From a virus (taxonomy: Duplodnaviria > Caudoviricetes): DNA of 64,000 bases. Below are positions 31,903-54,543 of this stretch, piece by piece. Below the pieces are notes generated by a model. The model searched no databases, was not told where the DNA came from, and saw only the letters and a list, made by a program, of their open reading frames with translations. Location: positions 4,352 to 68,351 of IMG/VR virus record IMGVR_UViG_3300030333_002216; one strand, written 5' to 3'. Numbering within the stretch: the stretch's first letter is position 1; each line of letters opens with the position of its first letter. The position numbers and the translations under genes are program-made.

Positions 31903-32094
31903 TCACTGCTCTTTGTTTTGTTGATATTTATCCTTTGCATAATTAGCACCCATCTGTGCGCCTTGTGCTATTACTTTCTTTCCTGTAGGTGAAGAGGCGG
32001 CGGCTCTTGCTCCTGCCGCCACTGCGGGTAGTATCTTCTCAAGTTCTTCCTCTTCTTCATCGAGGTTTTTCTTCAGAAGTTCTCTCCATGCCAT
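31903..32094 (-). CDS. Small W-tag protein (MAWRELLKK)
   Basis: Start re-assigned to ATG 32094, just after the upstream TAG. Confidence 0.65.
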   Translation of the reverse strand: MAWRELLKKNLDEEEEELEKILPAVAAGARAAASSPTGKKVIAQGAQMGANYAKDKYQQNKEQ

Positions 32095-32095
32095 A

Positions 32096-32329
32096 CTATC
32101 CCTCAATTGTCTCTATTATCTGATTGATTTCTGACCAGTCCATCTTCGCTATTGTGTCTCCTGTTACTGCCGTTGCTTCACTGCTTATTGATGGGGTCGG
32201 ACTATCAACTACTACGAGTCCACTTTTCATCAGTAGATTATCTTTCTGATAGACAACCTCCTCAAGTGACTTCACTTTGTCGACCAATTCCTTCAGTAGT
32301 AATATCATCTCATTCTTTTCTTCACTCAT
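32096..32329 (-). CDS. Small coiled-coil protein ending in MDWSEINQII (scaffold-tail-like)
   Basis: 77 aa; C-terminus resembles the scaffold end MSWSDIHSIV. Confidence 0.65.
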   Translation of the reverse strand: MSEEKNEMILLLKELVDKVKSLEEVVYQKDNLLMKSGLVVVDSPTPSISSEATAVTGDTIAKMDWSEINQIIETIEG

Positions 32330-32742
32330 CTTAATTCCTCCAAATGTTCCTTTAGGGCCAGTAGTGCTTCTCTATCTTCCTCGCCCCAATCTTCCATTGC
32401 TATGTAATAGCCACTATCACCTGTATATGAACCTAGTCTAAGTTGATGTTTGTAGTCCCAGAAGTTCAAATCGAACTCGACTGTTACCTCATCATCCTCC
32501 TCATGTTCCATAGTTGGCTCTAATGAGATGTAGTCCGTGACATATGTTTCGCCACTGTCCCTGTATCCATCGAGCATGTCATCATAGTCACCATCAGGTG
32601 TCACACCCATAATGGCCTCGTTGTTGTCCAGCATGTCAGCAACCTCACCTGCTAGGTCGTTAATGTCTTGCTTGATGATACTGAACCACTTCTGCTTGCG
32701 AAGGTTGTCCTTTAGTATTCCTCTCATGTTCATTTCAATCAA
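32326..32742 (-). CDS. Highly acidic W-tag protein
   Basis: 138 aa; MRGILK and KWFSIIK near the N-terminus; D/E-rich body. Confidence 0.7.
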   Translation of the reverse strand: MIEMNMRGILKDNLRKQKWFSIIKQDINDLAGEVADMLDNNEAIMGVTPDGDYDDMLDGYRDSGETYVTDYISLEPTMEHEEDDEVTVEFDLNFWDYKHQLRLGSYTGDSGYYIAMEDWGEEDREALLALKEHLEELR

Positions 32743-32933
32743 TCCATTGGAGGAATCCCTTGTTCCTCATCTTCCTTTCTTCTTTCTTCCATTTCCCTTT
32801 CTATGTCTTCGGGTGTGATTTTAGTGCCGTATCTGCCTTCGGCAGTAGCAGGTTCTTTTCCTCTGTAATCACCTTCAGTTTCTTTAGGGATTGGAATCTT
32901 CTTCAATATATCTTGCCAATTCATTTCAATCAC
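32739..32933 (-). CDS. Small W-tag protein (MNWQDILKK)
   Basis: 64 aa; shares the TGATTGAAATGAA start context with the next gene. Confidence 0.65.
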   Translation of the reverse strand: MIEMNWQDILKKIPIPKETEGDYRGKEPATAEGRYGTKITPEDIEREMEERRKEDEEQGIPPMD

Positions 32934-33478
32934 TCTAAATCGTTTAGTAGTCCGGCTTCATTGAAGATAAGGTATGCTTCAGGGAAATCCCTTTCCAGAT
33001 TATCAGTATCGCCACGACTTACTGCCGCCATGAATGCAGACAATTCCCTGTTTGTTCGATAATCAGTCCATTCATTTTCATAATGCTGACCTTGGAAATC
33101 TTCTAAGGCTTCTACTGTTTTTTGGTTTTTATCACCATACTCAAGTTGAGGGGCTGGGTCTTCCTCGTCCTCTGCATCCCTGTTCCTAGTAAAGTATTCA
33201 CTTGTGATTGCTTCATATAAATCATCAAAGTGTTCACTGCCAGTTACATTCGTGTTCATAAACTTGTCAATGGCTTTCGTAGCCCAATCATCGAGATTAT
33301 CCTCCTGTGCTACCTTAGCCATTCGTTCTCCTAGTTGATATGTTTCCCAGTTGAGTTCTTCCATGAAGTTATCATATTTCCATTGTAGCGACTCGCTCTC
33401 CTCAAGTAACTCAAGCATTTCTTTAGGCATATACTCGTCTTCATTACCATACAACTTTAGTATGTTAAACCAACTCAT
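32930..33478 (-). CDS. Acidic W-tag protein (MSWFNILK)
   Basis: 182 aa; ATGA coupling. Confidence 0.75.
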   Translation of the reverse strand: MSWFNILKLYGNEDEYMPKEMLELLEESESLQWKYDNFMEELNWETYQLGERMAKVAQEDNLDDWATKAIDKFMNTNVTGSEHFDDLYEAITSEYFTRNRDAEDEEDPAPQLEYGDKNQKTVEALEDFQGQHYENEWTDYRTNRELSAFMAAVSRGDTDNLERDFPEAYLIFNEAGLLNDLE

Positions 33479-33798
33479 TTCTTCCTCTCCTTCTTAGGGT
33501 AAATCTCTTTTCTCAACTGATTGTAGAGTGTCTCGTAATCCTTCCGTAGTTCGGAGGCTGTGGCAACTAGGTCTAAGTTGTTTTCATCGAACTTCTCAAA
33601 CTTCTTCTGCATGTTCTTATCGTTCTTCACTAAGTCAAGACCCTTCATCTCTTCCAACAAATCAGACAATTGCGCTATCTCCTGACCCATGAACTCTGTT
33701 GGTTGAGCCGCCTGTAGGAGTTTCTTTATTCTCTTCTTCTGTTTAGGCTCTAGTTTCTCTACTAGACCATTGGCTTTGAGGATAGATTGCCAACTCAT
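33475..33798 (-). CDS. Helical W-tag protein (MSWQSILK)
   Basis: 107 aa; ATGA coupling. Confidence 0.75.
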   Translation of the reverse strand: MSWQSILKANGLVEKLEPKQKKRIKKLLQAAQPTEFMGQEIAQLSDLLEEMKGLDLVKNDKNMQKKFEKFDENNLDLVATASELRKDYETLYNQLRKEIYPKKERKK

Positions 33799-34973
33799 TC
33801 AGACTCCTCCTCTTTATCCCACACATCATGTGCGTCTATTATATTTCTGAATTCTCTATGATGTTGGAATGGTCTTGGACTCTCTATCTCTTCTAGTTCC
33901 TTCAATACTTTCTCATTAACCCAATCATCCGTCTTTGTTATCTCAAAGACATGCATCAGGAACTCTATTGCTGTTAGATACTTCTCGATGTTATCTTCTG
34001 TCTTCTCATCGGGTTCTTCAGCATCCAGATAGTCATCATGCATCTCCATGACATCTTCTATTAGAATGTAGAGCGCACTCTCTAACTCATCGAATGAGTC
34101 CTCTTCAAACAATACTGGGAATTTCTCTAGTAGGTTGTCCTCTGGTATCAAGTGGAAAATCTGGTCAAGGTTCTTCTCATCGAATTGTATGTGTTGTTCT
34201 AATCTTCCTCTAGAAATATCCTTATCAGAGCCACGCATTATTTCTAAGCCTAAGAAGTTCATCAAGTCCTCCCAGACCTCTTTGGAGGGTTTGCCATTAT
34301 ACTTCTTGTATGCTGGTTCCTCTCCTTCCATCCACTCAAAGGACTCCTTATCGAATCTAGAAGCATTCGGGGATTCAAGGAACATCTCTCTGACCGCACC
34401 TGCTACTGGCTCACCGTAATACAGGAAGGCATCTATCTTGTCCTTGTAGGAAGCGAAGTCAGTTCCCCAATCCTTGATGAACTTCTCTTTCTGTGGGAAC
34501 TTCTCCTCTAACATGGCTGGGTTATCGAACTTGGCCGTCATCCGGAGTATCTCTTCCATTGCGTCTACATCGAAGACCCGTTGTTTGAATTGCTCTTTTT
34601 GCTTGACTCTGCGTTCCATCTCCTTTACATAGCCTTCTTGCAAGCCTTCTAGGATTTCTTCTATCTCGCCTCTCAAGGAGTATTCTGCACTCATCATCTC
34701 TTCGGGAGTAGTAGCGGATGGCATTGCCTCTATTCTATCTAGAACCTTACTTGAATTAGCCATGAAGCCGGGATTGGTTTTCCAATCTCCATCCGCTCTC
34801 GCTCTTCTGTCTTTTAGCGGCGCAGGTTGTGCTAGTAGGTTAGGGCCGAATTGTTCCTCATCCCATTTGCTAGATGCAGTCCTCAATTGCTTTGGGGTGA
34901 GATTCCCCTTGATGTCATAGATGTCATCATGGACTTCCCCACCCTGCTTTCTGAGGATATCCATGAATGACAA
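33795..34973 (-). CDS. Acidic protein with variant tag (MSFMDILRK)
   Basis: 392 aa. Confidence 0.75.
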   Translation of the reverse strand: MSFMDILRKQGGEVHDDIYDIKGNLTPKQLRTASSKWDEEQFGPNLLAQPAPLKDRRARADGDWKTNPGFMANSSKVLDRIEAMPSATTPEEMMSAEYSLRGEIEEILEGLQEGYVKEMERRVKQKEQFKQRVFDVDAMEEILRMTAKFDNPAMLEEKFPQKEKFIKDWGTDFASYKDKIDAFLYYGEPVAGAVREMFLESPNASRFDKESFEWMEGEEPAYKKYNGKPSKEVWEDLMNFLGLEIMRGSDKDISRGRLEQHIQFDEKNLDQIFHLIPEDNLLEKFPVLFEEDSFDELESALYILIEDVMEMHDDYLDAEEPDEKTEDNIEKYLTAIEFLMHVFEITKTDDWVNEKVLKELEEIESPRPFQHHREFRNIIDAHDVWDKEEESE

Positions 34974-34985
34974 CTAATCAGCCCC

Positions 34986-35210
34986 CTAGAATGGTATGTT
35001 CTCTTTCCTTGGTTTCTTTTTCTTTGGTAGTAAGATTGCATTTGGGATGTCTGCTGAATCAGGCTTCTCCTTTTTCTTCGTGTTAGGGTCTACCCCGCCC
35101 ACAGAGAAGTCACGGGTTTTCGTGACCTTATTCTCATGCTCCGCTCTTTGTCTGTTCCTCGCGGCTTTCAGTTCTCGTTCCAATTGTCTTACTCCTTTTT
35201 CTTCGCTCAT
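34986..35210 (-). CDS. Small basic hypothetical protein
   Basis: 74 aa; GGAGGAG RBS. Confidence 0.65.
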   Translation of the reverse strand: MSEEKGVRQLERELKAARNRQRAEHENKVTKTRDFSVGGVDPNTKKKEKPDSADIPNAILLPKKKKPRKENIPF

Positions 35211-35314
35211 TTTTTCAACTCCTCCAAATTCTTTTTGATTCTTTCATCTGTTTCCGCATTTAACTTGTCAATTTCTTCTTTCCATCTTTTGGCTATCTCA
35301 AGCAAATCGCTCAA
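35207..35314 (-). CDS. Micro-ORF, 35 aa (MSDLLEIAKRWKEEIDKLNAETDERIKKNLEELKK)
   Basis: TTG overlaps the portal stop and its TGA overlaps the next ATG; fills the gap exactly; below the track cutoff. Confidence 0.6.
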   Translation of the reverse strand: MSDLLEIAKRWKEEIDKLNAETDERIKKNLEELKK

Positions 35315-36948
35315 CCGACTCGCCTCTCTGTTCGCTTATCCACGTTTTCATTACCTGCGTCTTTCGGCAATCCACTGAATCTCTTATCAGGCCCAACGCT
35401 CATACTAGGCTTATTCCTAGATTTTACCTCTGCTGGTTTACCCGCATCTGCCATTGAGGGTTTATTACCCGCTTCCATCATCTGCCCTAAATGACCAGCA
35501 TCGATATTGGTTCCAGCGTATGGGTCTAGTTCTATTTCTTCTTGTTCCTGTTGGTCTTCTGGTTGTGGTGGCTTCACATAGGTGAAACGTCCTTCGTCAT
35601 CCATATTGACCTCAAATCCAAGGTTCTTGATAGCGGATGCAACGTTGACTTCAATCTCCCTCTTACGGAGTTTGGCTATCTCATCCTCTTCCTCGGAAGG
35701 TGGGAGTTTCAGTTCCCAATCCAAGATTCCGAATTCCTTCGTGACGAATGGGAAGACGTAGTTGTTCCAGATTGTCTGAGCCATCTCAACCGCTCTGTTC
35801 GTAACTAGAATCTGCATACCCTCGTTGTTCAGACCACCACTTGCAGAGTTATCTGCCATGAAGACCTTGCTCACTCCATAGAAACCCGATATCCTATCTC
35901 TCAAGTCATCCTTGACAGAGATGTAATCCATCTCCTTGAGGCTATCCATGAACTTCACCCACTCAATCGAACCCTTACCGTTCTCTGCCTCGATTCCCAT
36001 TACAGGAATGAAGTGTGGGTCAGTCTCCATCTTCTCCTTGACGCTTCGCCAGAAGGACTTCATGGAGTCAATGTTTCTAGTCTGAACTGCGAGCAATCCC
36101 TTCGGCATTCTCGCTTTGGTGTATGATGAGTTAACGTAGTTCTCCATTGCGATTAGCGTAGTCACATGGTTCCATAGTGTGATTATTGGGGATAGCCCAT
36201 ACATCCTACCGGGAGAGTATTTGCTGAAATGCAACACCTCTCCCTTCGTGAAGTATTGCTCCTCTCCCTTCACTCTATTGACATAGTGAACTGGATGAAG
36301 TTCTGAGTTGCATTCCTCACAGAGTCCAGTCGCACTAGTTTCTATTCTATCTCTGTGCTTTACGCAGACATAGCCACCTTTGCCCCTCTCTCCTAGTTCG
36401 TTAGAGTAGATGTGCATAGTAACAGGGTCACCGCGATAGACCTCCTTGATTCTATGCATACGAATCTGATTGTTATTATCCATGAAGTATTCCTTGACTA
36501 GAACCAAATAAGCATCATCCATGATGTTCAAGTCATCTTCCAATTCCTTCAATACGTCAATGAACAGTTGTTCGGATTTGTTGACATAGCCCTCTAGGAA
36601 CTTCTGCGCATACTTCAATTGCTCAGGATTGGGCTTCTCTAGATTGGGGGATTCACACTCAGAACACTGCTCTACTGGTGATTGGTGTTCCTTACCGCAA
36701 TCCATGCACTTCTTGACGAACTTCTCTTCCCAGAGATACCCTCTTCGGAATACCTCGTTCTTCAATTGGGTTACACATGTCCTGACAATCACTGACTGTT
36801 GGGCAATGTGATAGATAACAGGTGAAGTCAATAGGTATGATGTGTCCTTCTCTTGAATCCCCGGATTGTATACAGTCCTATCTGCTGGCTTAGGGGTAGT
36901 TCTCCTAAACAAATTTCCAATGCTGAATCTCCTTTTCTCGTCTGCCAT
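35311..36948 (-). CDS. Portal protein with zinc-ribbon insertions
   Basis: EVLHFSKYSPGRMYGLSPI, DMDY..DDLRDRISGFYGV portal-like motifs; CMDC..CSEC and CVKH..CEEC insertions; near terminase. Confidence 0.88.
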   Translation of the reverse strand: MADEKRRFSIGNLFRRTTPKPADRTVYNPGIQEKDTSYLLTSPVIYHIAQQSVIVRTCVTQLKNEVFRRGYLWEEKFVKKCMDCGKEHQSPVEQCSECESPNLEKPNPEQLKYAQKFLEGYVNKSEQLFIDVLKELEDDLNIMDDAYLVLVKEYFMDNNNQIRMHRIKEVYRGDPVTMHIYSNELGERGKGGYVCVKHRDRIETSATGLCEECNSELHPVHYVNRVKGEEQYFTKGEVLHFSKYSPGRMYGLSPIITLWNHVTTLIAMENYVNSSYTKARMPKGLLAVQTRNIDSMKSFWRSVKEKMETDPHFIPVMGIEAENGKGSIEWVKFMDSLKEMDYISVKDDLRDRISGFYGVSKVFMADNSASGGLNNEGMQILVTNRAVEMAQTIWNNYVFPFVTKEFGILDWELKLPPSEEEDEIAKLRKREIEVNVASAIKNLGFEVNMDDEGRFTYVKPPQPEDQQEQEEIELDPYAGTNIDAGHLGQMMEAGNKPSMADAGKPAEVKSRNKPSMSVGPDKRFSGLPKDAGNENVDKRTERRVG

Positions 36949-36950
36949 GC

Positions 36951-38402
36951 CTATTCATCCTCCAATACCTTATGCTCAAAAAGATAGTCAGACGCATCAT
37001 CCACTGAACTCCACTCGTCTTCTGACAAATCGTGTTCCTCTGCAATTTCCTCTAAGTCATCAATGGCCTCATCTGCACCCTTGATGACTCCCTCGATTAC
37101 ATCCATCTCTGTCATCTTAGAGTTATCATGAAACTTGGAAACTGTCTCTATGTCTATCCCATATTTAGCGAAGTCATAATTCGTGTTATCCTTGTGGTTC
37201 TCATACTTCATCAGTTGGAAGAGTTCTTCTCTTCTAGGCTTATACCAATCGGCCTTCTTATGGGATTTCTTCATTCTCAGCAACTCAAGGAGAATGTCAG
37301 CATTAGTTCCCTTCATCTTGAGGAATGGTCGGCACTTGGTCAATATCTCATTAACATCTGCCGCAGAGTAAAAGTTCAGTCTATTCACAGGCTTCGTGTC
37401 TTGTGGGGATTTTTGGTCTAAGTGCAGTCTACCACAACCTAGCGACTTGTGCATCTCTAGCATGAATGCCTTCCCCCTATCGCCAGTGGCAACGAGTCCA
37501 ACTCTTGGATTAAAATTTTTGTCCATTGTAATGTATCCATCTGAGTCAATGAAAGCGGCAGTGTATGCATAGATGTCCTTCTTAATGTCATCACTGAACT
37601 TGTAGAACGCACCATCAACCGTGGTGATATTCTGAGTCCTAGCCATCTTAGAGATAATGCTAGGTGACGTTTTCTTGAAGAGGTTCTTCGGTAGTCTCTC
37701 ATGTATCTGCCTAGCAGATATTCCCGGTTCCTCACATACCGCATGTAGAATCTCTTGCTTGATGATATCCTTCGGGCCAATGCTTGGCATGTGTTCCTTG
37801 ATTATCTTCTTGAACTCCTTCTTGCTATTGGTCATCTCCTTGGTTAGTGAAGAGTATCTAGAGTTGTATGGGCTTTCCTCTCTATCCAATCTCGCTTCCC
37901 AATATTTGCAGAGGGAGTCCAATGCTTCTCTACGAGTGTTCTCATCGTGGATGTATGAGAGTTTGATTAGTTGCTCCTCGGAACAAACCATCTCCTTGAC
38001 CACAGGTTTGTATTTGGCAAGCCAGTATATCTTCTCTATTGTCTCATCCAAATGGGATGCATAGCCCTTGATGAGATTGTCAATGGATTGTGTAATCTTG
38101 ACTTTCTCCTCGCCCTTCAGAGTCCTACGGTAGTTCTTGAGTTCCTTGATTAACGATGGGATGTCTTTTCCCTCTACCTCGTATTTCTTGAAATCCTCAT
38201 TTAGTTGCTTCTTAGCATCGGATAGGGAAACCTTGTTCTCTACTGCGAATTTCTTCTCAATGTCAAAATGGTTTGATACGGGTTGGTCAGACAACCAAGA
38301 ACGTTTTAATTCCTCAGTTAGTCTCTGTTGCTCTTCTATGAGTGTTGCTTCTTCATCAGCAAGAGCGGCAACTTCCCTTAGTTTGTCTCCCTTCTCACTC
38401 AT
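36951..38402 (-). CDS. Helical/HTH protein with a C-terminal LAGLIDADG domain
   Basis: YAYTAAFIDSDGYI motif, then LGCGRL...VNEILTKCRPFLKMK; PGISARQIHERL wHTH-like segment upstream. Confidence 0.8.
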   Translation of the reverse strand: MSEKGDKLREVAALADEEATLIEEQQRLTEELKRSWLSDQPVSNHFDIEKKFAVENKVSLSDAKKQLNEDFKKYEVEGKDIPSLIKELKNYRRTLKGEEKVKITQSIDNLIKGYASHLDETIEKIYWLAKYKPVVKEMVCSEEQLIKLSYIHDENTRREALDSLCKYWEARLDREESPYNSRYSSLTKEMTNSKKEFKKIIKEHMPSIGPKDIIKQEILHAVCEEPGISARQIHERLPKNLFKKTSPSIISKMARTQNITTVDGAFYKFSDDIKKDIYAYTAAFIDSDGYITMDKNFNPRVGLVATGDRGKAFMLEMHKSLGCGRLHLDQKSPQDTKPVNRLNFYSAADVNEILTKCRPFLKMKGTNADILLELLRMKKSHKKADWYKPRREELFQLMKYENHKDNTNYDFAKYGIDIETVSKFHDNSKMTEMDVIEGVIKGADEAIDDLEEIAEEHDLSEDEWSSVDDASDYLFEHKVLEDE

Positions 38403-38410
38403 AGTATCAC

Positions 38411-39853
38411 CTAGATATTCAACCCCATTATTCCTCCGGGCATAACGTTGCCCATAGGCCTTACAGGAGTCGTATCAAACAAGTCCATATCATCTAGGAG
38501 GATAAAGTTCTCGCTTGGTGATTGGGTGGCGGCATTGGCTAGAGCGAGGCTCATAACCAAGTCGTCATGTGCGCCAACTCCTTCAAAGCGACCAGACTCC
38601 GTGATGCTGAACATGGATAGTTCCTCAATCAACAGGTTAGTCAACCTTCTGCTGGCATTATCGCCATAGGGGAAATTCAATTTTCCATTCTCTATGTTCA
38701 TTTGTAGGTTGAGTATTATCTCTTGCTTCTTCTTACGAGTGGTGTCGAAGTCCTTAATGTTCAAGTCAGAAATGCTTCTCAACTCCTGAGTGAATGCCTT
38801 GGCGAAAGTGTTAGTCTCATAGAGAACCACTTCCGGTTGGAATATCTTACCAATCAGTCTAATCTTCTCTATGTTCTCCCTGAACTCAACGTTCTTTGCT
38901 CGGTCTACATGGACAATGGTTTTGTTTGCCTCATCATCCACTTCCAAGACTGTTATCACATTGTAGTCACCATCAGTGGATATCGCTGGGTCAACCCCAA
39001 CGTAATACTTGTATCCCTTATCTTTCCTATTTCCTAGTTTCAAAACGTATTCCTTATTCTTACAATTCTGTATGAATTCTGGATTGAACAGTGAGGTTCC
39101 AGTTGATATGGGAACACACAGATACTCACGGGTAAACTTGAGGGAGCCAATCTCAGCCTTCCTCTGTAGCAGAGCATCGGCATCCCATCTCTCAGGCCAT
39201 AATGGTTCATTCAATGCATTGAAGCAAGGATACTTGGTTACGGTATATGCTGGGTTCTCCTCAAGTTGAGCGAATATGTCAGTGTATGTGAATGGAGTGC
39301 CAATCATTCGTAGGTTGGATGTATGGTGAAGAGTGGGTATCATGTCACCAAAGAACCAGTCAGTCACTCTTTGGATAGCGGCTAGGCTGAACTCCTTCAA
39401 CGGGTCGTCAATGATAATTTCCTGTGGGTGGAGTCCTCTAATCTGAGAGCCAACTGACCTCTCTAGGATTGCATTGCCATTGGTTAGTTGTATGTTACCA
39501 ATTGCCCAGTTCCTACTGGGGCGGAACTTCTTCAATGCCGGATGATTGAACATCCTGTCTATCTCACGCATGTGAACAAGAGTCTGCTTCTGGTTCGATG
39601 AGATGTATAGCATCTGAAACGGAGGCTCTTGGAAGATTAGATTCCAAACAACCCAACTGTGCATGAAGACGGACTTGCCGTGGTCACGACTACAGATGAT
39701 GACAGTCCTATCAGTTGTCTGCATTGACTCAAGCCATTCCTCCATGTATGGTGGGAACATCATACCGAGGACGTTCTGGAAGAAGTATGGGAAGGATGTC
39801 TTGGACATCTCCATGTCCATTGCAGAAACGAAGTCCATGTCATCTAGTTCCAT
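38411..39853 (-). CDS. terL: Terminase large subunit
   Basis: Walker A SRDHGKS, IRGLHP..IIIDDP Walker B, IGTP motif III, nuclease GVDPA and HDDLVMSLALA. Confidence 0.95.
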   Translation of the reverse strand: MELDDMDFVSAMDMEMSKTSFPYFFQNVLGMMFPPYMEEWLESMQTTDRTVIICSRDHGKSVFMHSWVVWNLIFQEPPFQMLYISSNQKQTLVHMREIDRMFNHPALKKFRPSRNWAIGNIQLTNGNAILERSVGSQIRGLHPQEIIIDDPLKEFSLAAIQRVTDWFFGDMIPTLHHTSNLRMIGTPFTYTDIFAQLEENPAYTVTKYPCFNALNEPLWPERWDADALLQRKAEIGSLKFTREYLCVPISTGTSLFNPEFIQNCKNKEYVLKLGNRKDKGYKYYVGVDPAISTDGDYNVITVLEVDDEANKTIVHVDRAKNVEFRENIEKIRLIGKIFQPEVVLYETNTFAKAFTQELRSISDLNIKDFDTTRKKKQEIILNLQMNIENGKLNFPYGDNASRRLTNLLIEELSMFSITESGRFEGVGAHDDLVMSLALANAATQSPSENFILLDDMDLFDTTPVRPMGNVMPGGIMGLNI

Positions 39854-40674
39854 CAGGTCTTACCTCCAAATGGATTAGGTGGCCCTCCTCCTCCTTTTCG
39901 CCTTCTCTTGTTATCGATTTGCTTCTTATCTCCACCCAGTGCCTTTGTTCTTTTCTGTTCTAGCCGTTCTATCTCAGTCCTTCGGAATTCATACTGACCA
40001 TCGCCTTTGTATTTGTTCCCTAACTCTCGTTTTTTCTTTTTGTATTTCCTTTGTTTCTTTTTATATGACTCCAAGTCTTCCTCATCTTGCTCTGTCCAAG
40101 TAACTTCAGGCTCTTCCTCTTCTTGTCCCTTGATGTTCTCCCATCTCTCGGTATCATTCGGCCAAAGAGGGAAAATATCAGTGACCTCATTAGCCTCCAT
40201 CTTTGCTTCTATGTTGCCTATTGGGTCATCATATGCATTAACGTCTGTGGGATATACACTATCGAAAACAACTATCCCTCTGGGTGCATCATTATGTCCG
40301 AATCCTGTAGGTTTAGGTCGCGCTTCTCCTCCTCTTACTTGAAAAAGGCCACTACCGGGTAATTCCCTGTTCAAGGGAACCCTTCTCCATGTGACGATAT
40401 AATCCTCGTTATCAGGAGCGGCGAATGAGAAATTCAAATCCCACTCCTCACCTTTGGCCCCTATTTGCCTCCTGACTACTTGGAGGTCATCCTTGTCTAG
40501 TGCGCCTACTGATTCTGATTTTCCCTCAAAATGCGGTCTGGTCATCGTGGTGTTTCTCACACTGTAGCCGTGGTCACTCTTTGGGGTCTGTTTGTCTTTG
40601 TAATGGGTATCGCTGAATTCTACAGCATTGAGCAGTTCCTTGCCACTGATTTTGAGAATATCGAACCAACTCAT
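39853..40674 (-). CDS. W-tag protein (MSWFDILK) with basic C-terminus
   Basis: 273 aa. Confidence 0.75.
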   Translation of the reverse strand: MSWFDILKISGKELLNAVEFSDTHYKDKQTPKSDHGYSVRNTTMTRPHFEGKSESVGALDKDDLQVVRRQIGAKGEEWDLNFSFAAPDNEDYIVTWRRVPLNRELPGSGLFQVRGGEARPKPTGFGHNDAPRGIVVFDSVYPTDVNAYDDPIGNIEAKMEANEVTDIFPLWPNDTERWENIKGQEEEEPEVTWTEQDEEDLESYKKKQRKYKKKKRELGNKYKGDGQYEFRRTEIERLEQKRTKALGGDKKQIDNKRRRKGGGGPPNPFGGKT

Positions 40675-45700: not shown

Positions 45701-46573
45701 TCACCTCAATTTATCCTCAATGAATGCTATCACATCTGGTTCAGCATTGTTCTGTCTCAGGATGGCTAGGTTCTGTGCGCTGAACTTGAAGCCCTTGTTA
45801 TCGAAGGCTCTTACCTTGTTTCTTACTTGTTGAGTAACCCAATCCTTGTCTTGTGCCATTCTGTCGTTGAAGATTTGTCTCAGGTCTTTGCTCAGAGATA
45901 TAGCAGGGAATACCTTGTCCTTATTCTTACCCATCTCCAATGCACGAAGACGACCCATGACTCCTCTCAGCGTCTTCATGTCCTTTGCATTACTAGGGTC
46001 ATATCCTTCTAATCTAAGACCACCCTTCCCTACCTCATGTTTGTTAGTTGTAGCCCATACCCTGCGTTGCTTCATCTCTTCTGGAAGTTCGTTCTGTTCC
46101 CAATACGCATCCACTTGTTTCTTTGTCACTGGTTGTAGTTCATCATAGTAGTATCCCAATTTATTCTCCCAAGGCTTGGGGAATGGTGGTGGGCTTTTCA
46201 ACACACTAAACCAACCGTTTCTTTCTTTGTCTTCGCTTGCCAATTTGTAGCCTCCTTGATTTCTGAATCGACTTCTCATTTGTCCCTCAACACCAATGCC
46301 TGTTGCATTGCTTTCCAATGCATCTGCTAACTGTTGTCTCATCCAAGCCTTCCATTTGACTCTAGGACTGCTTGGCAGACTAATCTGATGTGGCTCGTTT
46401 GAAGGGTCATGTTGCTCGGATGGATTCGCTTCAGTATATCTGATTATACCCCCATGCGCTCTATCCGGTTCTGCGCTTACAACTTTCCATTTGGGGAGAT
46501 TCCTCTTGATGAACGCAACTGCTTGGGCAAGTTTACCCTGCTTCTTGTGTAGCGTTTCTCCCCAATTCATCAT
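45701..46573 (-). CDS. Two-part protein with N-terminal and internal W-tags
   Basis: MMNWGETLHK start; internal GWFSVLKS. Confidence 0.7.
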   Translation of the reverse strand: MMNWGETLHKKQGKLAQAVAFIKRNLPKWKVVSAEPDRAHGGIIRYTEANPSEQHDPSNEPHQISLPSSPRVKWKAWMRQQLADALESNATGIGVEGQMRSRFRNQGGYKLASEDKERNGWFSVLKSPPPFPKPWENKLGYYYDELQPVTKKQVDAYWEQNELPEEMKQRRVWATTNKHEVGKGGLRLEGYDPSNAKDMKTLRGVMGRLRALEMGKNKDKVFPAISLSKDLRQIFNDRMAQDKDWVTQQVRNKVRAFDNKGFKFSAQNLAILRQNNAEPDVIAFIEDKLR

Positions 46574-46574
46574 A

Positions 46575-46871
46575 TCACTTTCCATACATTAGAGTTTGAG
46601 CATCATCCTTGGCTTTCTCATGAAGTTTCTTTGGAACCCAAGGGGGATTCCATCCGAGTTTTGCCTCCTTGTGTTCCTTCGGTGGCTCCTTGTCGAACTT
46701 GAATCCCTTTGGTGGTGGAATCTGATAATCAAAGTTATCACCACACCATGCACAGTATTCTTGACCCTCTTCTACAGGCCTTATGCAGTTATTCCTACAA
46801 AGCAGATATCCTAACTTGTATTTCCTATCGGCATATACCTTCTTCGCTTTCACTATATCCTTCCAACTCAT
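46575..46871 (-). CDS. W-tag zinc-finger protein (MSWKDIVK)
   Basis: Start re-assigned to ATG 46871 (ATGA overlap); CRNNC...YCAWC. Confidence 0.7.
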   Translation of the reverse strand: MSWKDIVKAKKVYADRKYKLGYLLCRNNCIRPVEEGQEYCAWCGDNFDYQIPPPKGFKFDKEPPKEHKEAKLGWNPPWVPKKLHEKAKDDAQTLMYGK

Positions 46872-47524
46872 TGCATCTTCTCCTCCATTTGCTTTCTTAC
46901 ATCTAGCCACACTTCAGGGTGGTTCTGTGCTAGAACCTCCTTGATTACTTGCATTTGATGAACGATAATAGTGTCTTGTCTCTTGTGAACCAACTTGCCC
47001 TTGAACTCCATGAGATACTTCAGGCTCTCACGAATCTCCTTTGCCAACTTGGTTAGTGAATCGATATACTTGGGGTCAACACCATCCTGTGCAAACAACT
47101 CATCCACCTTTGTCTCAAGCCTACCGATGTTATTACTGAGGACTCCAATCTCGTCAACGTCCTTCTGTGCGATTAGTTGAGCGGCTGACTGTTGGACTAG
47201 TGGTTGCAGGTGGTGCTTCATGTGCCTCATTATCTGGTCTTCCGAACAACCGACAACCTCAGCCGCAACCGTTGGTGTCATCACCCCATCGTGAACCTGC
47301 TTCTCAATCTCGCTTCTGATTGGGTGTATGCAAATCTTGCATCGTGGGTTAGACGCATTGGTGTAGCCAGCCATGTGATTCCTCTGATGTCTTGAGGATG
47401 TGCCACTAGGCCAATTCATCCTATTGTCCAACTCATCGGGAGATATGGCAATGCTCTCCAAGTCATGCTCTAGTTGCTCACGGTCTTCGTGATTGCAAAG
47501 TGCGCATCTCTTTCTTGTAATCAT
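46868..47524 (-). CDS. Putative terminase small subunit / duplicated Zn-HTH DNA-binding protein
   Basis: Two CxxCxH-x2-R-x2-[IL]E...RHxxxH repeats followed by a coiled coil. Confidence 0.5.
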   Translation of the reverse strand: MITRKRCALCNHEDREQLEHDLESIAISPDELDNRMNWPSGTSSRHQRNHMAGYTNASNPRCKICIHPIRSEIEKQVHDGVMTPTVAAEVVGCSEDQIMRHMKHHLQPLVQQSAAQLIAQKDVDEIGVLSNNIGRLETKVDELFAQDGVDPKYIDSLTKLAKEIRESLKYLMEFKGKLVHKRQDTIIVHQMQVIKEVLAQNHPEVWLDVRKQMEEKMQ

Positions 47525-48909
47525 TATTTCACATCCAATGTTGTTTGCTCACCAGTTAGGTGTTCTTTCTCTTTCTTTCTTTTATTAGCAAGTTCTTCTC
47601 TGAATTGTTTTGTTCTCTCTAAGTTATTAACTGCGGCTACATTCTTCCTACCGCCATAACCCGGCAAAAACTGTCCTTTCACATCCCTACCTAGTTTAGT
47701 TTGAACGGTCTTGTCTTTAGGTTTCTTCGCGTTTTCCGCATCCTTCTTCTCCTTGGCTTCTCTCGCCGCTTTAGCGGCCCCAGATTCCTGTGAGCCATCT
47801 GACATTATATTACCAAACGTAGTCTGTCCGTCATCCTTCACTTCACCCATCCAACTACCCGCATCCCATTGCTCGGCACTGCTCAATTGGTCTTTCACAT
47901 TCTGTGATAGTCCTTCTTTTTCCTTTGGTGGTGCTTTCTCGTATGGGTGTAGTCTCTCTCTTTCGGCTTCAACTTCTGCACTTGTCGCAGTAGCGGTTCC
48001 AGTTATCTTCTTGCGATTCAGTTCTGCTAATGCGTTGTTCTTCTCACGTTGGATGTCTATTCTGTCCTCAGCACTAGCATCTCTTAGGCGAGTCTCAAAC
48101 TTCTCTTCTACCTCTTTTATTTGCCTATCAATTCCTTCTAATGTAGCAGGGTCAGTTACCTCTTGTGTTCTACTCATTCGCCACTGCGGATTACCAGTCT
48201 GCTCTTGCATATGTGCCTCGTATTCCGCTAGGTGTTCTTTCCTCTGTGATTCAGTGGGTTTCTTAGTTCCACCAAATCCAGTCCAGTCCCTTATGAAATT
48301 CTTTGCCTTTGCCTTCCCAGCAGTGTCAGCATATCCCTTCTCTCTAAGCCACTGCTGATAGTTGGCCCCTTCTTCGTTGAGTATTGGTTGATTTCTACCT
48401 TGCATTTGTGATACCCTCTCTTGAAATTGTTCCTCTGACTCACCAACGTTTCTAGTTGCCCCTCTTTTACTCTTGACGGGTGATGCGGATTGGTGATAAC
48501 TCGCAATGTTAGTAGGGGTCGGAGCCATACTCCTAGCACCTTGCACGATGTTTTGTGGTATATTCCGAACACCTCTGTCAATTTGACTTGCCGTTCCTCT
48601 GACCCCTGTTGTTACATCATGCAGGATGTTCTTACCAGTTTGCACTGCCGCATCTTTTCCTTGTTGCAAGGTCTGCCTAACATTCGCACTAAGCGGAGCC
48701 GTCTTGTCTGCAATATATTGCCCTGCTCTTTGCATTCTTCCCGGCACTTGGTTACCAACACTTGTAGTAGGAGGTGTATTGGCTTGAGCATAGGCCTGTT
48801 CGTCTGCTATTCTTGCATCTCTTATTGCGGCGGGATTACTTGTGTCTACTACTCTAGTGGCTTGCTCAAGGTCTTCCCTCATATCCTTGAGAATGTCAAA
48901 CCAACTCAT
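47524..48909 (-). CDS. W-tag protein (MSWFDILK), Q-rich and largely disordered
   Basis: About 461 aa; ATG at 48909 preferred over GTG 48918. Confidence 0.75.
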   Translation of the reverse strand: MSWFDILKDMREDLEQATRVVDTSNPAAIRDARIADEQAYAQANTPPTTSVGNQVPGRMQRAGQYIADKTAPLSANVRQTLQQGKDAAVQTGKNILHDVTTGVRGTASQIDRGVRNIPQNIVQGARSMAPTPTNIASYHQSASPVKSKRGATRNVGESEEQFQERVSQMQGRNQPILNEEGANYQQWLREKGYADTAGKAKAKNFIRDWTGFGGTKKPTESQRKEHLAEYEAHMQEQTGNPQWRMSRTQEVTDPATLEGIDRQIKEVEEKFETRLRDASAEDRIDIQREKNNALAELNRKKITGTATATSAEVEAERERLHPYEKAPPKEKEGLSQNVKDQLSSAEQWDAGSWMGEVKDDGQTTFGNIMSDGSQESGAAKAAREAKEKKDAENAKKPKDKTVQTKLGRDVKGQFLPGYGGRKNVAAVNNLERTKQFREELANKRKKEKEHLTGEQTTLDVK

Positions 48910-48918
48910 TTTATCCAC

Positions 48919-49545
48919 CTACTGTTGTAAATCTTGTTGCCATTGTGGTTGGGGGTCAGGATGCATTTCATCGAGTCTTCTATCCACCCCAGCATAACCA
49001 CCTTGTCTACCCCATGCACCTTCTAGCATAGCATGTCTACCTGCTTGCATTTCATTGCGGTGGTATTCATCTATCTCGGAGCCATCTGGAAATGAATCTG
49101 GGTTTGATGCCATCCATTCTTGGAACATCTCATCACTAGTCCCGTATCTGGCCTTCTCTCTCAAATCCTGAGCATCCATCAGTGCTTGGTTATGCTCTCT
49201 CTTTTTTCTCTCTTCGACTCTAGATGGCATCATCCTATCTGCGAAATCAGAGAGCCTACCCTTCTCGACCTCACTGAACCAATCCTCTTTATTGATTCTA
49301 AAACCAGTCTTCTGCTCCTCATCATCATCCTCTTCAGGGTCTACTGAAAACTCAGGCTCATCAGTGGGATTCACTGTTGGTGGCTCCGGTGGTGGAGCAG
49401 GTGGCATTCCCATTGGTGGTGGTGGCATTCCCATACCATCCATCGGTGGGGGCGGGGGCATAGGGCCACCCATAGGCGGAGCGGGTGGTGGCGGCGGTGG
49501 AGGCATCTCTTCAGGTGGTTGTTTCAATACATCTTCCCAACTCAT
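48919..49545 (-). CDS. W-tag protein (MSWEDVLK) with poly-proline tract
   Basis: PPPPPPPAPPMGGPMPPPPPMDGMGMPPPP; internal DWFSEVEK. Confidence 0.75.
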   Translation of the reverse strand: MSWEDVLKQPPEEMPPPPPPPAPPMGGPMPPPPPMDGMGMPPPPMGMPPAPPPEPPTVNPTDEPEFSVDPEEDDDEEQKTGFRINKEDWFSEVEKGRLSDFADRMMPSRVEERKKREHNQALMDAQDLREKARYGTSDEMFQEWMASNPDSFPDGSEIDEYHRNEMQAGRHAMLEGAWGRQGGYAGVDRRLDEMHPDPQPQWQQDLQQ

Positions 49546-51766: not shown

Positions 51767-51793
51767 TTACAGACAACACTTTATTCTTCTGAA

Positions 51794-52531
51794 TCATATC
51801 ATTGACCTCACCTTGTTGTTTATCTGTTGCCATGCTTCCTTCAACAATTTAACTAATTCAGCATCTACGTCACTAACATAGGCCTCGTCCACATCCGGAT
51901 ATCCTTGGAGATAATACGGGTCTAATTCAAACAAGTAACTCATCTCATACCAAGACTCGCCTATGTCGGTGGCAATCACTGTAAAACCAAACCGATTCAT
52001 CTGAGGGACATACCTAGTAAAACCAAGTAAGTCCCACCCCTCCAAGTCATTAACGACTTGTTCCCATGTTGCTTCTGTCTTACCAGATACAATGTTGAGT
52101 AGTTCTAGGAATTTACATGCGACTGGTTCTGGAACTTCCTCCATGAGTCTTTCTGTTTCACTGCCTTCAAACTGCGCACTACCAATTCTTTCATCTACAA
52201 TGTGACGATTAGTCAGGTTGATGTCAAAAACCCCTCCCCTGCCTTTGTGTTTTATCTTCTTCGGAATAGGCTTGCCCCCTGTCCCAGAATCCCATATTGT
52301 GATGTAACTATCTTCTATGGTAATTTTATCAGCCGGAAAGTCCCAAACCAACTTAGCCACATCCAGTGTTTCTGATGCAATGTCCTCCTTACCATTTCCC
52401 CATGTATCCAAGACACGCTTCATTTTCTCACGACAACCAGTCTTCTCCTCCTCTATCTTCTTGGGCTTCTTTATCCTAACCTTCTGCTTAGGGATGTTGA
52501 TTTGCAACTTTAGAACATCGAACCAATTCAT
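51794..52531 (-). CDS. Paralogue family member 1 (MNWFDVLK)
   Basis: Shared leader INIPKQKVRIKKPKKIE..C and later ACKFLE. Confidence 0.8.
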   Translation of the reverse strand: MNWFDVLKLQINIPKQKVRIKKPKKIEEEKTGCREKMKRVLDTWGNGKEDIASETLDVAKLVWDFPADKITIEDSYITIWDSGTGGKPIPKKIKHKGRGGVFDINLTNRHIVDERIGSAQFEGSETERLMEEVPEPVACKFLELLNIVSGKTEATWEQVVNDLEGWDLLGFTRYVPQMNRFGFTVIATDIGESWYEMSYLFELDPYYLQGYPDVDEAYVSDVDAELVKLLKEAWQQINNKVRSMI

Positions 52532-53097
52532 GCTGATTTCATCAACTCCAATAACTTCCGGGTATACTCATCCCTCATAGCGAAACTTTCTTTCTCAGGC
52601 CTACGTTTCCATGAGTCAGGTTCTACGTTTGGTTCGGGGATAGTGTGGAATCTAATGGTAAAGACTATTCCTTCTAAATCAGCCATAGCCACATGCCGAG
52701 GTTGTGGGGAAAACATAAATGACGGTAGATTTCGCATTACGAATGACATATCAGCACTACTATACGTCTTATCTGCCCAGACTTTAACAACATCATTTAC
52801 TGAATCACCTATTTTCTTTACTTCTATGGCTCTTATTTCTTCTAGAACTTTACAGGCATCCTCTTCTTCTAAGCCATCGACAGTTTCCTTCATATTGGCT
52901 ATCTCTGTATAGACGTTTGCCGATTCTACCAAAGCCACTTTCTCTGCCTCGTCACAAAAGACATCCAATCGGTTTAGAAATGCCTTGATTCTTTCCTTAC
53001 AATCCTCCCTAGTCTCTATCTTCTTAGGCTTCTTCATGCTAACTATGCTCTTAGGCACAGAGATAAGCGGCTCCTTCAGAATGTCAAACCAACTCAT
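52528..53097 (-). CDS. Paralogue family member 2 (MSWFDILK)
   Basis: EPLISVPK..KKPKKIE..CKERIKAFL, ACKVLEEIR. Confidence 0.8.
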   Translation of the reverse strand: MSWFDILKEPLISVPKSIVSMKKPKKIETREDCKERIKAFLNRLDVFCDEAEKVALVESANVYTEIANMKETVDGLEEEDACKVLEEIRAIEVKKIGDSVNDVVKVWADKTYSSADMSFVMRNLPSFMFSPQPRHVAMADLEGIVFTIRFHTIPEPNVEPDSWKRRPEKESFAMRDEYTRKLLELMKSA

Positions 53098-53645
53098 ACT
53101 GATTTCATCAACTCCGATATTTTCTGTGCATACTCAGTCCTCTGTTCCATTGTATCAAATATCAATGTGATGTCAAACGAAGTGCTGACCCAGTTCCCTT
53201 GTTCAGGCCATGTATGACTGTTGTAGTCCCAATGCTCAACCTTCATCAGTAAAGCCAGACGGGGCTGAGACTGGTATTCATCCAACCCCAGCATAACAAT
53301 ATTTCCTTCAGGACTCTCCCATCTCTCCTCCCTAGATTGGATTGCTTTTCTTATCTCTTCTAGAAGTTTACAGGCCGCTTCTTCCTCTATAGTATCAATA
53401 GCACCCTCCATGTCATCTATCTCCCACTCTACCCAGTAAATTTTGGCATAGCCCTCCGAATAGATAGGTTGCTGAAATTCATCCTTATTCGATGTCTCTT
53501 TACAAAAGTCTCTCAATCGACCTAGAAAGGCCTTGATTCTTTCCTTACATTCTTTCTTAGTCTCTATCTTCTTAGGCTTCTTGATTCTAACACTGCCTTT
53601 GGGAATAGATATCAACGGCTCCTTGATAATGTCAAACCAACTCAA
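53094..53645 (-). CDS. Paralogue family member 3 (MSWFDIIK)
   Basis: EPLISIPK..IKKPKKIE..CKERIKAFL, ACKLLEEIR; TTG start. Confidence 0.8.
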   Translation of the reverse strand: MSWFDIIKEPLISIPKGSVRIKKPKKIETKKECKERIKAFLGRLRDFCKETSNKDEFQQPIYSEGYAKIYWVEWEIDDMEGAIDTIEEEAACKLLEEIRKAIQSREERWESPEGNIVMLGLDEYQSQPRLALLMKVEHWDYNSHTWPEQGNWVSTSFDITLIFDTMEQRTEYAQKISELMKSV

Positions 53646-54334
53646 CCTACCGCCTCCTTGAACATCCTTTCACATTCCTTGAAGGCTCTATCGATTTCAT
53701 CACTCCAACCATCCCATGCAGTGTCAGAAGGGTGCATGTCTTCAGTCAAGTAAAACTTCAGAGAAATACCAATCGTCAGTTTTGACAGTATTGAGGAATA
53801 GTCAGCACTTGGTTTCTTGATGTAGACCTCCCTATTCCATAGATGGACTACAGGGTTTTTCCCACGACCTCGGAGTCCTGTTTTTATGACATGCGAGCCA
53901 ATCTGCAAACCATCGATTGTTTCCATCCAACGCTCTTCTCCATTAGAAACCGCCTTCAGATGCTCCAACGCCTTACAACATACCTTTTCTGACAACTCAT
54001 TGAAATGCTCATCGGAACGCGCCCCAGCAACATAGCCTATCGCACCAATACTTTTTCCTTCCAAGGCCCATATATCTTCATCCTTTTCTGGAAGCCATGT
54101 TGCTACCTTGTGAATACTCGGTTTTTCCGTTGCTGACATCTCTGATACCCAATCTGCACCGTTAATTTTGAATTTCATGTCAAATAATGGAGTATTATAC
54201 ATTCTCTGGGCGATTTCCACTAATTTCCTCTTACAATCGTCCTCTTGCTCTATTTTTTTCGGCTTTTTAATGCGAATCTTCTGTTTTGGGATGGAAATTA
54301 GCGGTTTCTTGAGAATTTCCGTCCAATCTGCCAT
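53642..54334 (-). CDS. Paralogue family member 4 (MADWTEILKK)
   Basis: PLISIPKQKIRIKKPKKIE..CKRKL, CCKALE. Confidence 0.8.
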   Translation of the reverse strand: MADWTEILKKPLISIPKQKIRIKKPKKIEQEDDCKRKLVEIAQRMYNTPLFDMKFKINGADWVSEMSATEKPSIHKVATWLPEKDEDIWALEGKSIGAIGYVAGARSDEHFNELSEKVCCKALEHLKAVSNGEERWMETIDGLQIGSHVIKTGLRGRGKNPVVHLWNREVYIKKPSADYSSILSKLTIGISLKFYLTEDMHPSDTAWDGWSDEIDRAFKECERMFKEAVG

Positions 54335-54342
54335 ATTCCCAC

Positions 54343-54543
54343 CTATTTTTCGGAATATTGGCTACATCCGCCCTTCGCATTGACGGTAATACTGTCCAAA
54401 GTGCAATTTCCGCCCACATTATGCTCACAATCCCTAGCAACACATAGCGAAACCTTGCATTTCCCCAACTTTGGCTTATCGGACTCATAGTCAAGCCACT
54501 CTTTGCCCTGTTTCTCAGTTTTCAACTTCTTCTGCCAATCCAT
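54343..54543 (-). CDS. Small W-tag protein with DUF1540-like Cys domain; first gene of the late operon
   Basis: MDWQKKLK; CVARDCEHNVGGNCTLDSITV...CSQY. Confidence 0.7.
   Translation of the reverse strand: MDWQKKLKTEKQGKEWLDYESDKPKLGKCKVSLCVARDCEHNVGGNCTLDSITVNAKGGCSQYSEK

Follow-up and report, generated by a model that had tools for sequence, protein, structure and literature searches.

A shared eight-residue N-terminal tag as a candidate capsid-loading signal for a fast-changing protein set in a magrovirus of group B type

Gene content of the window

We analysed a 64,000-nt stretch of the IMG/VR record IMGVR_UViG_3300030333_002216 (positions 4,352-68,351, that is, 64 kb of a 68-kb record; hereafter the window), in which many genes begin with a short common peptide, typified by M-S-W-F-D-I-L-K, that we call the tag. 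A preliminary description of this DNA had proposed that the tag targets proteins to the capsid. Nearly every gene of the window from position 57992 down to 3 is carried by the minus strand. In order of transcription, small genes are followed by a tag-rich block (54543-39853), the large terminase, an HNH-like gene and the portal, after which come small tagged genes (34973-31903), a ligase-domain protein, a protease-scaffold, the major capsid protein and a block of head-completion and tail genes that includes proteins of 2392 and >1298 residues. The landmarks of the head module are:

26381-27751, minus strand: major capsid protein, with an N-terminal arm (N-arm) that carries a conserved N-A-L-L-K at residues 25-29 (27665-27679)
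27763-28977, minus strand: prohead protease (Pfam S78, PF04586; head maturation protease in PHROG) fused to a scaffold
28999-31641, minus strand: 880-residue protein with an ATP-dependent DNA ligase domain, within the head module, with a tag-like W-K-K-I-I-K at about residue 44
35311-36948, minus strand: portal protein (Pfam and PHROG scans)
36951-38402, minus strand: HNH-like gene between terminase and portal (family scans)
38411-39853, minus strand: large terminase subunit (family scans)

The protease domain was recognised by a PF04586 match of 40.2 bits (cut-off 21; E=5e-10) covering residues 28-178. In the capsid and protease genes, identity to the closest cultured relatives, the haloviruses HVTV-1 and HCTV-1/5, is 23-31%. 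Closer relatives were found in IMG/VR through the portal, at least 126 in all, of which the best 80 (73-98% identity) were retained, and several of these come from records of 93-103 kb that are rated complete. The relative with 98% portal identity (G001) has a family-B polymerase in split form, together with an RFC-like ATPase, a PD-(D/E)XK nuclease, a ribonucleotide reductase and another ligase, of archaeal type, on the other strand; the polymerase consists there of two open reading frames (ORFs) of 553 and 290 residues with small ORFs between them (G001 64891-68513, L085). Magroviruses, tailed viruses of Marine Group II archaea, are described as ranking with the most abundant viruses of archaea in the surface ocean, and those of group B as viruses of about 100 kb whose head genes are nearest to those of haloviruses, whose head module includes a ligase and a homing nuclease, and whose replication module has a second ligase and a split family-B polymerase (PMC5434244). 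Given the ligase and the HNH-like gene in the head module, the two ligases, the split family-B polymerase and the relatives of about 100 kb, the window belongs to a magrovirus of group B type. Near-identical pieces of the capsid gene, the protease gene and four tagged genes are also found on metatranscriptome contigs from two samples of one study, although contigs cannot show level, strand or transcription.

Tagged genes of the window

All 17 N-terminal peptides quoted in the preliminary description were found at their genes on the minus strand; 13 are strict tags, M-x(0-2)-W-x-x-[ILV]-[ILVM]-[KR], three are variants and one is internal to its ORF. The tagged genes and their close company are:

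31903-32094, minus strand: tagged gene, 63 residues, M-A-W-R-E-L-L-K-K
32096-32329, minus strand: 77-residue helical protein with an untagged N-terminus; C-terminus (32099-32143) K-M-D-W-S-E-I-N-Q-I-I-E-T-I-E-G
32326-32742, minus strand: 138-residue ORF, K-W-F-S-I-I-K inside it at some 19 residues from the start; the tag is N-terminal in some relatives
32739-32924, minus strand: tagged gene, 61 residues, M-N-W-Q-D-I-L-K-K
32930-33478, minus strand: tagged gene, 182 residues, M-S-W-F-N-I-L-K, acidic (net -31)
33475-33798, minus strand: tagged gene, 107 residues, M-S-W-Q-S-I-L-K; its family has 84 members, 50 of them scored as tagged
33795-34973, minus strand: 392-residue post-portal gene, F variant S-F-M-D-I-L-R-K, TTG start, product mostly helical
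39853-40674, minus strand: tagged gene, 273 residues, M-S-W-F-D-I-L-K, immediately upstream of the large terminase
44050-45696, minus strand: tagged gene, 548 residues, M-T-W-H-T-V-L-K, cysteine-free
45701-46570 (to 46585), minus strand: gene of 289-294 residues, variant tag M-N-W-G-E-T-L-H-K, internal W-F-S-V-L-K (about 46196-46213)
46575-46871, minus strand: tagged gene, 98 residues, M-S-W-K-D-I-V-K
47524-48909, minus strand: tagged gene, 461 residues, M-S-W-F-D-I-L-K, cysteine-free
48919-49545, minus strand: tagged gene, 208 residues, M-S-W-E-D-V-L-K, proline-rich
51794-54334, minus strand: array of four paralogous tagged genes (51794-52531, 52528-53097, 53094-53645 and 53642-54334)
54343-54543, minus strand: 66-residue Cys-rich gene, weak tag M-D-W-Q-K-K-L-K, DUF1540-like just under the Pfam cut-off

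The ORF at 45701-46585 is represented by two genes in the 98%-identical relative G001 (2671-3763), and its internal W-F-S-V-L-K corresponds to the N-terminal tag, M-S-W-F-D-I-L-K, of the second of these. The protein bodies behind the tags, which the preliminary description had called unrelated, indeed gave BLAST E>0.01 for most pairs once the first 10 residues had been removed, except that the four genes of the array are paralogues: their bodies match at E=7e-19 (52528 vs 53094), E=7e-5 (51794 vs 52528) and E=0.007 (53094 vs 53642), and they have an extended common N-terminus, W-F-D-I-L-K-E-P-L-I-S-I-P-K...R-I-K-K-P-K-K-I-E.

Some further observations concern these genes. A second short motif, P-L-I-S-I-P-K or I-P-I-P-K, follows the tag in the array and in the gene at 32739-32924, and another complete relative (G005, 11931-14546) has four tandem paralogues with L-L-x-K-P-K after the tag. 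A cysteine-free protein of 939 residues (41252-44071, minus strand), for which Pfam and PHROG scans gave no match, starts at a GTG and, five residues later, reads M-T-L-E-L-L-L-K-E-K, possibly a W-to-L variant of the tag. The W-K-K-I-[IV]-K at about residue 44 of the ligase-domain protein (28999-31641) is kept in its close relatives, and this protein might be a head protein itself.

A short peptide shared by many protein families

Genes were called in the window, in three complete relatives (G001, G004 and G005) and in 77 loci with a simple caller of our own, which takes the longest non-overlapping ORFs of at least 45 residues and from which some false ORFs and wrong starts are expected; L001, L057 and L073, which lie within the three complete records, and L081, which is the window's own record, were omitted. 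Tags were present on 384 of the resulting 1919 genes (349 with W and 35 with F), at 13-18 tagged genes per genome. Single-linkage grouping of the bodies by BLAST (first 14 residues off, E<1e-5, coverage of at least half) gave 456 families, of which 147 have a tagged member, and in 63 families of two or more members at least half of the members are tagged.

The 532,226 residues of the gene set that lie away from N-termini contain 127 copies of the core W-x-x-[ILV]-[ILVM]-[KR], and the window has 13 strict tags where 0.04 would be expected from its 57 gene starts at three offsets (Poisson P(>=13)=1.3e-28). The 80 related loci, 1.42 Mb in all, hold 472 core matches, and 333 of these fell within three codons of a start codon that is followed by at least 50 open codons. 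A 4-mer resembling a Shine-Dalgarno sequence lies upstream of 298 of 347 tagged starts, compared with 2289 of 11783 (19%) internal in-frame ATGs, which makes the tagged start codons credible.

A logo built from one member of each of 133 families reads, from position 1 to position 8, M; S84/T17/N16; W; F36/E32/Q24/K22; D68/N17/S13/E11; I88/V23/T12/L9; L77/I30/V23; and K126/R7, with information at background from position 9 onward. The W and positions 6-8 are fixed by the search pattern, while positions 2, 4 and 5 were free to vary. The tag is thus a peptide of eight residues with the consensus M-[S/T/N]-W-x-[D/N/S/E]-[I/V]-[L/I/V]-K.

The position of the tagged genes is as uneven as their bodies are diverse. 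In the window, G001, G004 and G005 taken together, tags are carried by 50 of the 144 genes that lie upstream of the capsid gene on the structural strand and by 1 of 314 genes elsewhere (Fisher p=3e-27). The latter are made up of the other strand (0/190), the capsid gene and the genes downstream of it (1/101) and the rest of the structural strand (0/23), the lone tagged gene being found two genes past the capsid gene in G004. This comparison of head-side genes with background had been set beforehand as a refuting test, and the motif proved to be commoner on the head side. Likewise, none of the 20 window genes from the capsid gene downstream is tagged, in line with the earlier remark that the tail genes lack the tag.

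Scaffold tails and protease borders

The end of the scaffold had already been noticed to resemble the tag, and it does read ...E-M-S-W-S-D-I-H-S-I-V-E-R-Y-Q, with M-S-W-S-D-I-H-S-I-V-E-R-Y-Q at 27766-27807. Of 76 relatives, 70 have a protease-scaffold that closes with [M/L/I/V]-S-W-x-[D/E]-[I/L]-H-x-[L/I/V], and in an alignment of 64 sequences S392 and W393 never vary. A similar tail is found on the 77-residue helical protein, whose gene sits amid the tagged genes: among 61 relatives, 49 have the C-terminal sequence K-M-D-W-x-[D/E]-I-[H/N]-x-[I/M]-[V/I]-E. As scored, the tail pattern is hydrophobic-[SDTN]-W-x-[DE]-[ILV] in the last 22 residues; internally the same pattern occurs only twice in 490,013 residues. 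The Ser codons of the scaffold tail vary, so that selection on this tail acts on the peptide. The first part of the tag, hydrophobic-S-W-x-D/E-I, is the very motif that ends both scaffold-type proteins.

The last part of the tag has its counterpart in the protease-scaffold as well, at both ends of the Pfam S78 match:

28906-28920, minus strand: F-S-I-L-K, residues 20-24 of the protease-scaffold
28450-28464, minus strand: F-D-I-L-K, residues 172-176 of the protease-scaffold

In 64 protease-scaffolds, F20-x-I22-L23-K24-S-D is invariant after a variable leader, and P-E-A-K-F172-D-I-L-K176 is invariant ahead of a variable linker and a coiled coil. The commonest tag, M-S-W-F-D-I-L-K, thus combines two overlapping words, M-S-W-x-D-I from the tail and F-D-I-L-K from the borders. 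A related motif, hydrophobic-x-K, is found in the N-arm of the capsid protein: N-A-L-L-K-[S/A] is present there in all close relatives, and an alignment of 98 diverse capsid homologues has K in 81 and R in eight at the column of K29, with a hydrophobic residue in 78 at the column two earlier.

A second tag dialect

Searching IMG/VR for A-F-D-x-A-W-x-L-L-K yielded 101 stretches with 129 distinct N-terminal tags, many of them on records of about 95 kb. These represent a second group of magroviruses, which encodes a chaperonin and whose tag is M-T-A-F-D-x-A-W-x-L-L-K (L098-L177; G006-G010). The four full protease-scaffold sequences of this group have G-S-[D/E]-F-[L/I]-L-K-[S/A] ahead of the protease domain and Y-T-[I/L]-L-K-M after it, the scaffold has two G-N-x-x-V-I-K repeats, and the capsid N-arm has T-D-L-L-K-A in the two records in which it could be read. 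Judged by these sequences, the border motif recurs in both magrovirus groups. No clear co-variation was seen when the I-L-K or L-L-K form of the tags was set against that of the protease borders in the two groups.

For the tag of the window's own group, the commonest DNA form has at least 134 matches in IMG/VR. As a separate observation, an IMG/VR record of 184,733 bases (L265), almost twice the usual size of a magrovirus, contains two exact copies of the tag DNA 300 bases apart.

Composition of the tagged proteins

Most tagged proteins are orphans by domain searches. Among 144 tagged-family representatives, nine had a Pfam match at E<=0.001 and three were over the curated cut-off (PAP2, DUF1540 and DUF6321), leaving 141 with no Pfam match over that cut-off. 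PHROG was searched with 98 of the 144, a set from which the window's own proteins (scanned separately) and most of the shortest were left out, and the eight matches comprise one portal fragment mis-scored as tagged, one weak head maturation protease and six families of unknown function. The PAP2 phosphatase domain belongs to a tagged protein encoded at L079:10322-11122 (50.3 bits, cut-off 27.2), and the weak likeness to the head maturation protease PHROG (E=2e-6) to a tagged protein of 174 residues encoded directly after the portal at L058:7624-8148.

The tagged families have a median length of 112 residues, individual proteins ranging up to about 870, and 63% of the families carry a net negative charge. 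A 19-residue window with mean hydropathy of at least 1.6 was found in none of 131 tagged families and in 50 of 270 untagged ones, a control that includes some false ORFs. Proteins that spend time outside the cell are expected to be low in cysteine. Cysteine makes up 0.53% of the tagged proteins (58 of 10,981 residues), 0.36% of the virion block, that is, the capsid gene and those downstream (150 of 41,872), and 1.65% of the replication proteins on the other strand (541 of 32,880), and the ranking is identical in each of the four genomes. Compared protein by protein in G004, G005 and the window (Mann-Whitney), tagged proteins differ from replication proteins (p=1.4e-5) and not from virion proteins (p=0.71); the difference from replication proteins persists both above 200 residues (p=3e-6) and up to 200 residues (p=0.015). 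This cysteine poverty speaks against the tagged genes as ordinary intracellular early genes.

Structure prediction gave little to go on. The 392-residue post-portal protein was modelled by AlphaFold2 from 29 sequences as mostly helical, with a predicted local distance difference test (pLDDT) score of 72.5, and Foldseek found no match to the model in the PDB at E<=0.001. By BLAST, this protein showed no similarity to the MuF-like gp114 of HVTV-1 (E=0.59). In the ESM Atlas, neither the 548-residue nor the 392-residue tagged protein had a usable match.

A candidate capsid-loading signal

The best reading of the tag, to which we give a probability of roughly 55%, is that it is a capsid-loading signal for a fast-changing set of proteins. 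The capsid-targeting idea of the preliminary description is partly and indirectly supported by genome position, by the match to the scaffold tail, by the lack of membrane segments and by the low cysteine content; for the effector role that came with it, the diversity of the proteins is the one argument. Under the loading reading, the tag would dock any protein that bears it where the scaffold is held within the procapsid during assembly, and the likeliest place for this is the capsid protein, at its inner face or N-arm. The end of the tag, F-D-I-L-K or more generally hydrophobic-hydrophobic-K, would then be cut after the lysine by the HK97-type protease, freeing the cargo within the head. The cargo, composed of soluble, cysteine-poor and mostly orphan proteins, would be carried in the virion and pass into the host together with the DNA, or may be disposable core material.

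A fuller version, which we put forward only tentatively and consider rather doubtful as a whole, is that the tag is a two-part code, in which a docking word borrowed from the scaffold (hydrophobic-S-W-x-D-I) is joined to a release word cut by the protease (hydrophobic-hydrophobic-K), so that 24 bases would suffice to make a gene into capsid cargo, and that the cargo is a rapidly exchanged arsenal injected into Marine Group II archaea as infection begins. With more than 140 families sampled and 13-18 tagged genes per genome, no tailed virus would then be known to have a larger natural repertoire for protein delivery, and the tag would be ready-made for putting foreign proteins into HK97-fold shells.

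Several points weigh against the loading reading or parts of it. DNA-level constraints, namely overlap of the start codon with the upstream stop and total avoidance of AGCT, partly determine residue 2 of the tag (see below). If the protease cut at every hydrophobic-hydrophobic-K, this motif should be avoided inside the cargo, and there is no real avoidance: tagged bodies contain 66 where 77.8 are expected (z=-1.46), next to 179 against 179.9 expected in untagged bodies, and although hydrophobic-x-K gave z=-2.8 in tagged bodies, this was one among nine patterns tested and is not compelling. The scaffold tail of the second group, ...D-G-W-R-A-A-E-M-L-A-Q-R-A-L-R-G-E, has no plain match to that group's own tag, so mimicry of the tail is not general and is clear only in the group of the window. 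The protease domain around F-D-I-L-K hardly varies anywhere, and the invariance of this motif alone is therefore no sign of cutting there. For the protease-scaffold, AlphaFold2 (64 sequences) gave a poor model, with a mean pLDDT of 47.9 and borders that could not be placed; only the tail helix at 393-403 reached pLDDT of about 57-72, and the tag, which the preliminary description took to be an amphipathic docking helix, was a low-confidence helix in one AlphaFold2 model. Early host-takeover genes, too, are typically small, overlapping, fast-changing orphans. Finally, in the literature on magroviruses, judged by titles and abstracts, we found no virion proteome.

The loading reading would, if true, give a place (the interior of the head) and a time (assembly and the first seconds of infection) to roughly one in three genes on the upstream side of the capsid gene, in viruses in which the majority of genes have no known function. 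It would also tie cargo loading mechanistically to the scaffold tail and to protease specificity. Although virus and host are both uncultured, the eight-residue handle can be tested in heterologous procapsids. The preliminary description knew of no account of such a tag for these viruses; literature on magroviruses and on the tag words yielded none either (supplements of the magrovirus papers were not opened), and no occurrence of W-F-D-I-L-K, W-Q-D-I-L-K, W-E-D-I-L-K or W-F-N-I-L-K was found in it.

Alternative explanations

The competitor that survives best, though we think it unlikely, accepts that tagged proteins are loaded and holds that they are disposable helpers of the core or scaffold, degraded by the protease and gone before DNA is packaged, so that nothing is delivered. 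In the gene order of T4, small core proteins lie between portal and protease, which is where several tagged genes are found here; many tagged proteins are small and acidic, and they share the motif of the scaffold tail, all of which would suit such helpers. On the other hand, a housekeeping role does not predict 147 families, mostly singletons in our set, over about 80 related loci, nor does it predict proteins that are large (461, 548 and up to about 870 residues) or that have enzyme-like or Zn-ribbon domains such as PAP2, DUF1540 and DUF6321, and cut-type motifs are not enriched in the bodies. The model for this explanation would be T4 gp67 and gp68, the processing of which is described in PMC9958956.

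It is a little less likely still that the tag docks late proteins to a hub other than the capsid, such as a host factor, a viral assembly site or a membrane, and that the scaffold uses the same hub. W-x-x-[ILV] cores are common as short linear motifs, which leaves room for this idea. The word W-K-D-I-L-K also occurs in literature on frog dermaseptins, which are membrane-active antimicrobial helices, a likeness that is probably coincidence. Against a membrane as the hub, the information in the tag stops after eight residues, too short for a stable membrane helix, and the membrane-like hydropathy window described above is absent from all 131 tagged families. Against a host factor, a DNA-level search with the commonest form of the tag found 36 scattered matches in 596 Gbp of prokaryote genomes, where about 26 are expected by our own estimate from the information content of the pattern, and none of them was in the host order; with matches at chance level and outside that order, there is no sign of a host system that uses the tag. 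The cysteine poverty of the tagged proteins also fits an extracellular fate. A viral chaperonin was considered as the partner of the tag and set aside, as none of the three group 1 genomes encodes one.

Less probable again is the idea that the tag does no more than mark substrates for the S78 protease, whether to activate late proteins or to time their destruction, with no loading into the head. It draws on the identity between the end of the tag and the F-x-I-L-K at both borders of the protease domain, and on the sharp end of the motif at position 8, with K in 126 and R in seven of the 133 families. At the same time, the W and S of the tag are absent from the border motifs and present in the scaffold tails. 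HK97-type proteases act within the closed prohead, so that their substrates must themselves be inside, and this disfavours a signal for cutting without loading.

The remaining possibility is that the shared 5' ends reflect a feature of the DNA or RNA (translational coupling, composition at starts or a recombination cassette) or common ancestry, with a peptide that has no function, and here codon use is informative. An ATGA overlap with the upstream stop is found at 146 of 349 tagged starts and at 189 of 1535 untagged ones; it demands an A after the ATG and so makes S (AGT), T, N and K more likely as the second residue. The window wholly avoids three 4-base palindromes, AGCT (0, 175 expected), GATC (0, 257 expected) and GTAC (0, 162 expected); AGCT and GATC are at zero in G001, G004 and G005 too, and GTAC is at zero in two of those and occurs 82 times in G005, a pattern that looks like escape from host restriction enzymes. 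The absence of AGCT forbids AGC before TGG, and in the gene set AGC is followed by T three times and AGT by T 1138 times. Tag codons for F, E, Q and I likewise prefer forms that end in A or T.

The preliminary description had taken differences at synonymous positions as a sign of selection on the peptide. This is true of Leu7, for which all six codons are used, and positions 6 and 7 vary conservatively (I/V/T and L/I/V), but it fails at Ser2, which is AGT in 186 of 195 cases. ATGA coupling, which it had named as a possible sole cause of the conservation, accounts for position 2 only, and not for W, I, L or K. The G+C content at third codon positions is no lower in the tag (0.32) than in the gene bodies (0.30), and the same peptide appears at C-termini with varied Ser codons. 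By these observations, the core of the tag is selected as a peptide. A codon test for purifying selection could be made on only two pairs of equal length, which is too few, with differences of 20, 16 and 41 at codon positions 1, 2 and 3. With the second dialect also retaining W and L-L-K, a functionless peptide is very improbable, and a purely DNA-level origin of the core is excluded.

Comparison with known systems

Encapsulins are described as binding unrelated cargo to the inside of an HK97-fold shell through a short terminal peptide, which is the likeness that we suppose here. They have no genome, protease, portal or tail, and their cargo peptides are usually C-terminal and of a different consensus. 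The window, with its portal, terminase and tail genes, does not encode a genome-free shell of this kind.

Scaffold proteins and the HK97 protease gp4 have C-terminal tails that bind the capsid, HK97 gp4 cuts gp5 after a lysine, and the herpesvirus protease-scaffold is cut at the border of its protease domain and again close to its tail. The protein described here is alike in that the terminal peptide is its most conserved part outside the protease and that candidate cut motifs lie at the domain borders. We know of no case in the HK97 or herpesvirus systems in which the tail has been copied onto many other proteins.

Among the haloviruses, HVTV-1 encodes the large minor head proteins gp113, gp114 (MuF-like) and gp115 (annotated as zeta toxin) in the interval between portal and protease, the location of part of the tagged genes here. 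HVTV-1 lacks the tag, and its scaffold tail differs; work on the HVTV-1 virion was for that reason ruled out as a test of the tag.

The closest functional parallel is the capsid-targeting sequence (CTS) of phage T4, described for IPII and IPIII as an N-terminal peptide of about 10 residues that sends diverse proteins to the prohead core and is removed by the prohead protease; IPI and Alt are likewise described as losing N-terminal peptides, and the cargo as diverse, fast-evolving and including anti-restriction proteins (PMC3012670, PMC9958956). In both systems a short N-terminal peptide is common to otherwise unrelated proteins of one virus. We claim no likeness in sequence, and the host here is an archaeon. 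The T4 protease is of the gp21 type, whereas that of the window belongs to Pfam S78 (HK97 type), and the handful of tagged proteins in T4 compares with the 13-18 genes per genome and 147 sampled families reported above. Moreover, the tag copies the tail of the scaffold itself, unlike the T4 CTS, and its loading and cutting are predictions from sequence. In phage P1, the first 30 residues of DarB, a protein of the Dar anti-restriction system, are described as loading this protein, or a foreign reporter, into the head, from which it is ejected with the DNA (PMC9024508, PMC12810830). The P1 signal is known for one protein, with stepwise loading through DarA and Hdf, whereas one eight-residue motif is found here on many families.

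By analogy, then, the magrovirus system would work like the T4 CTS and the P1 signal. It differs from them in sequence, in the family of its protease, in the domain of its host and in scale, and its signal is composed of a scaffold tail and a protease border motif; if the tag does load proteins, it would be a natural plug-in cargo system well beyond the size of those of T4 or P1.

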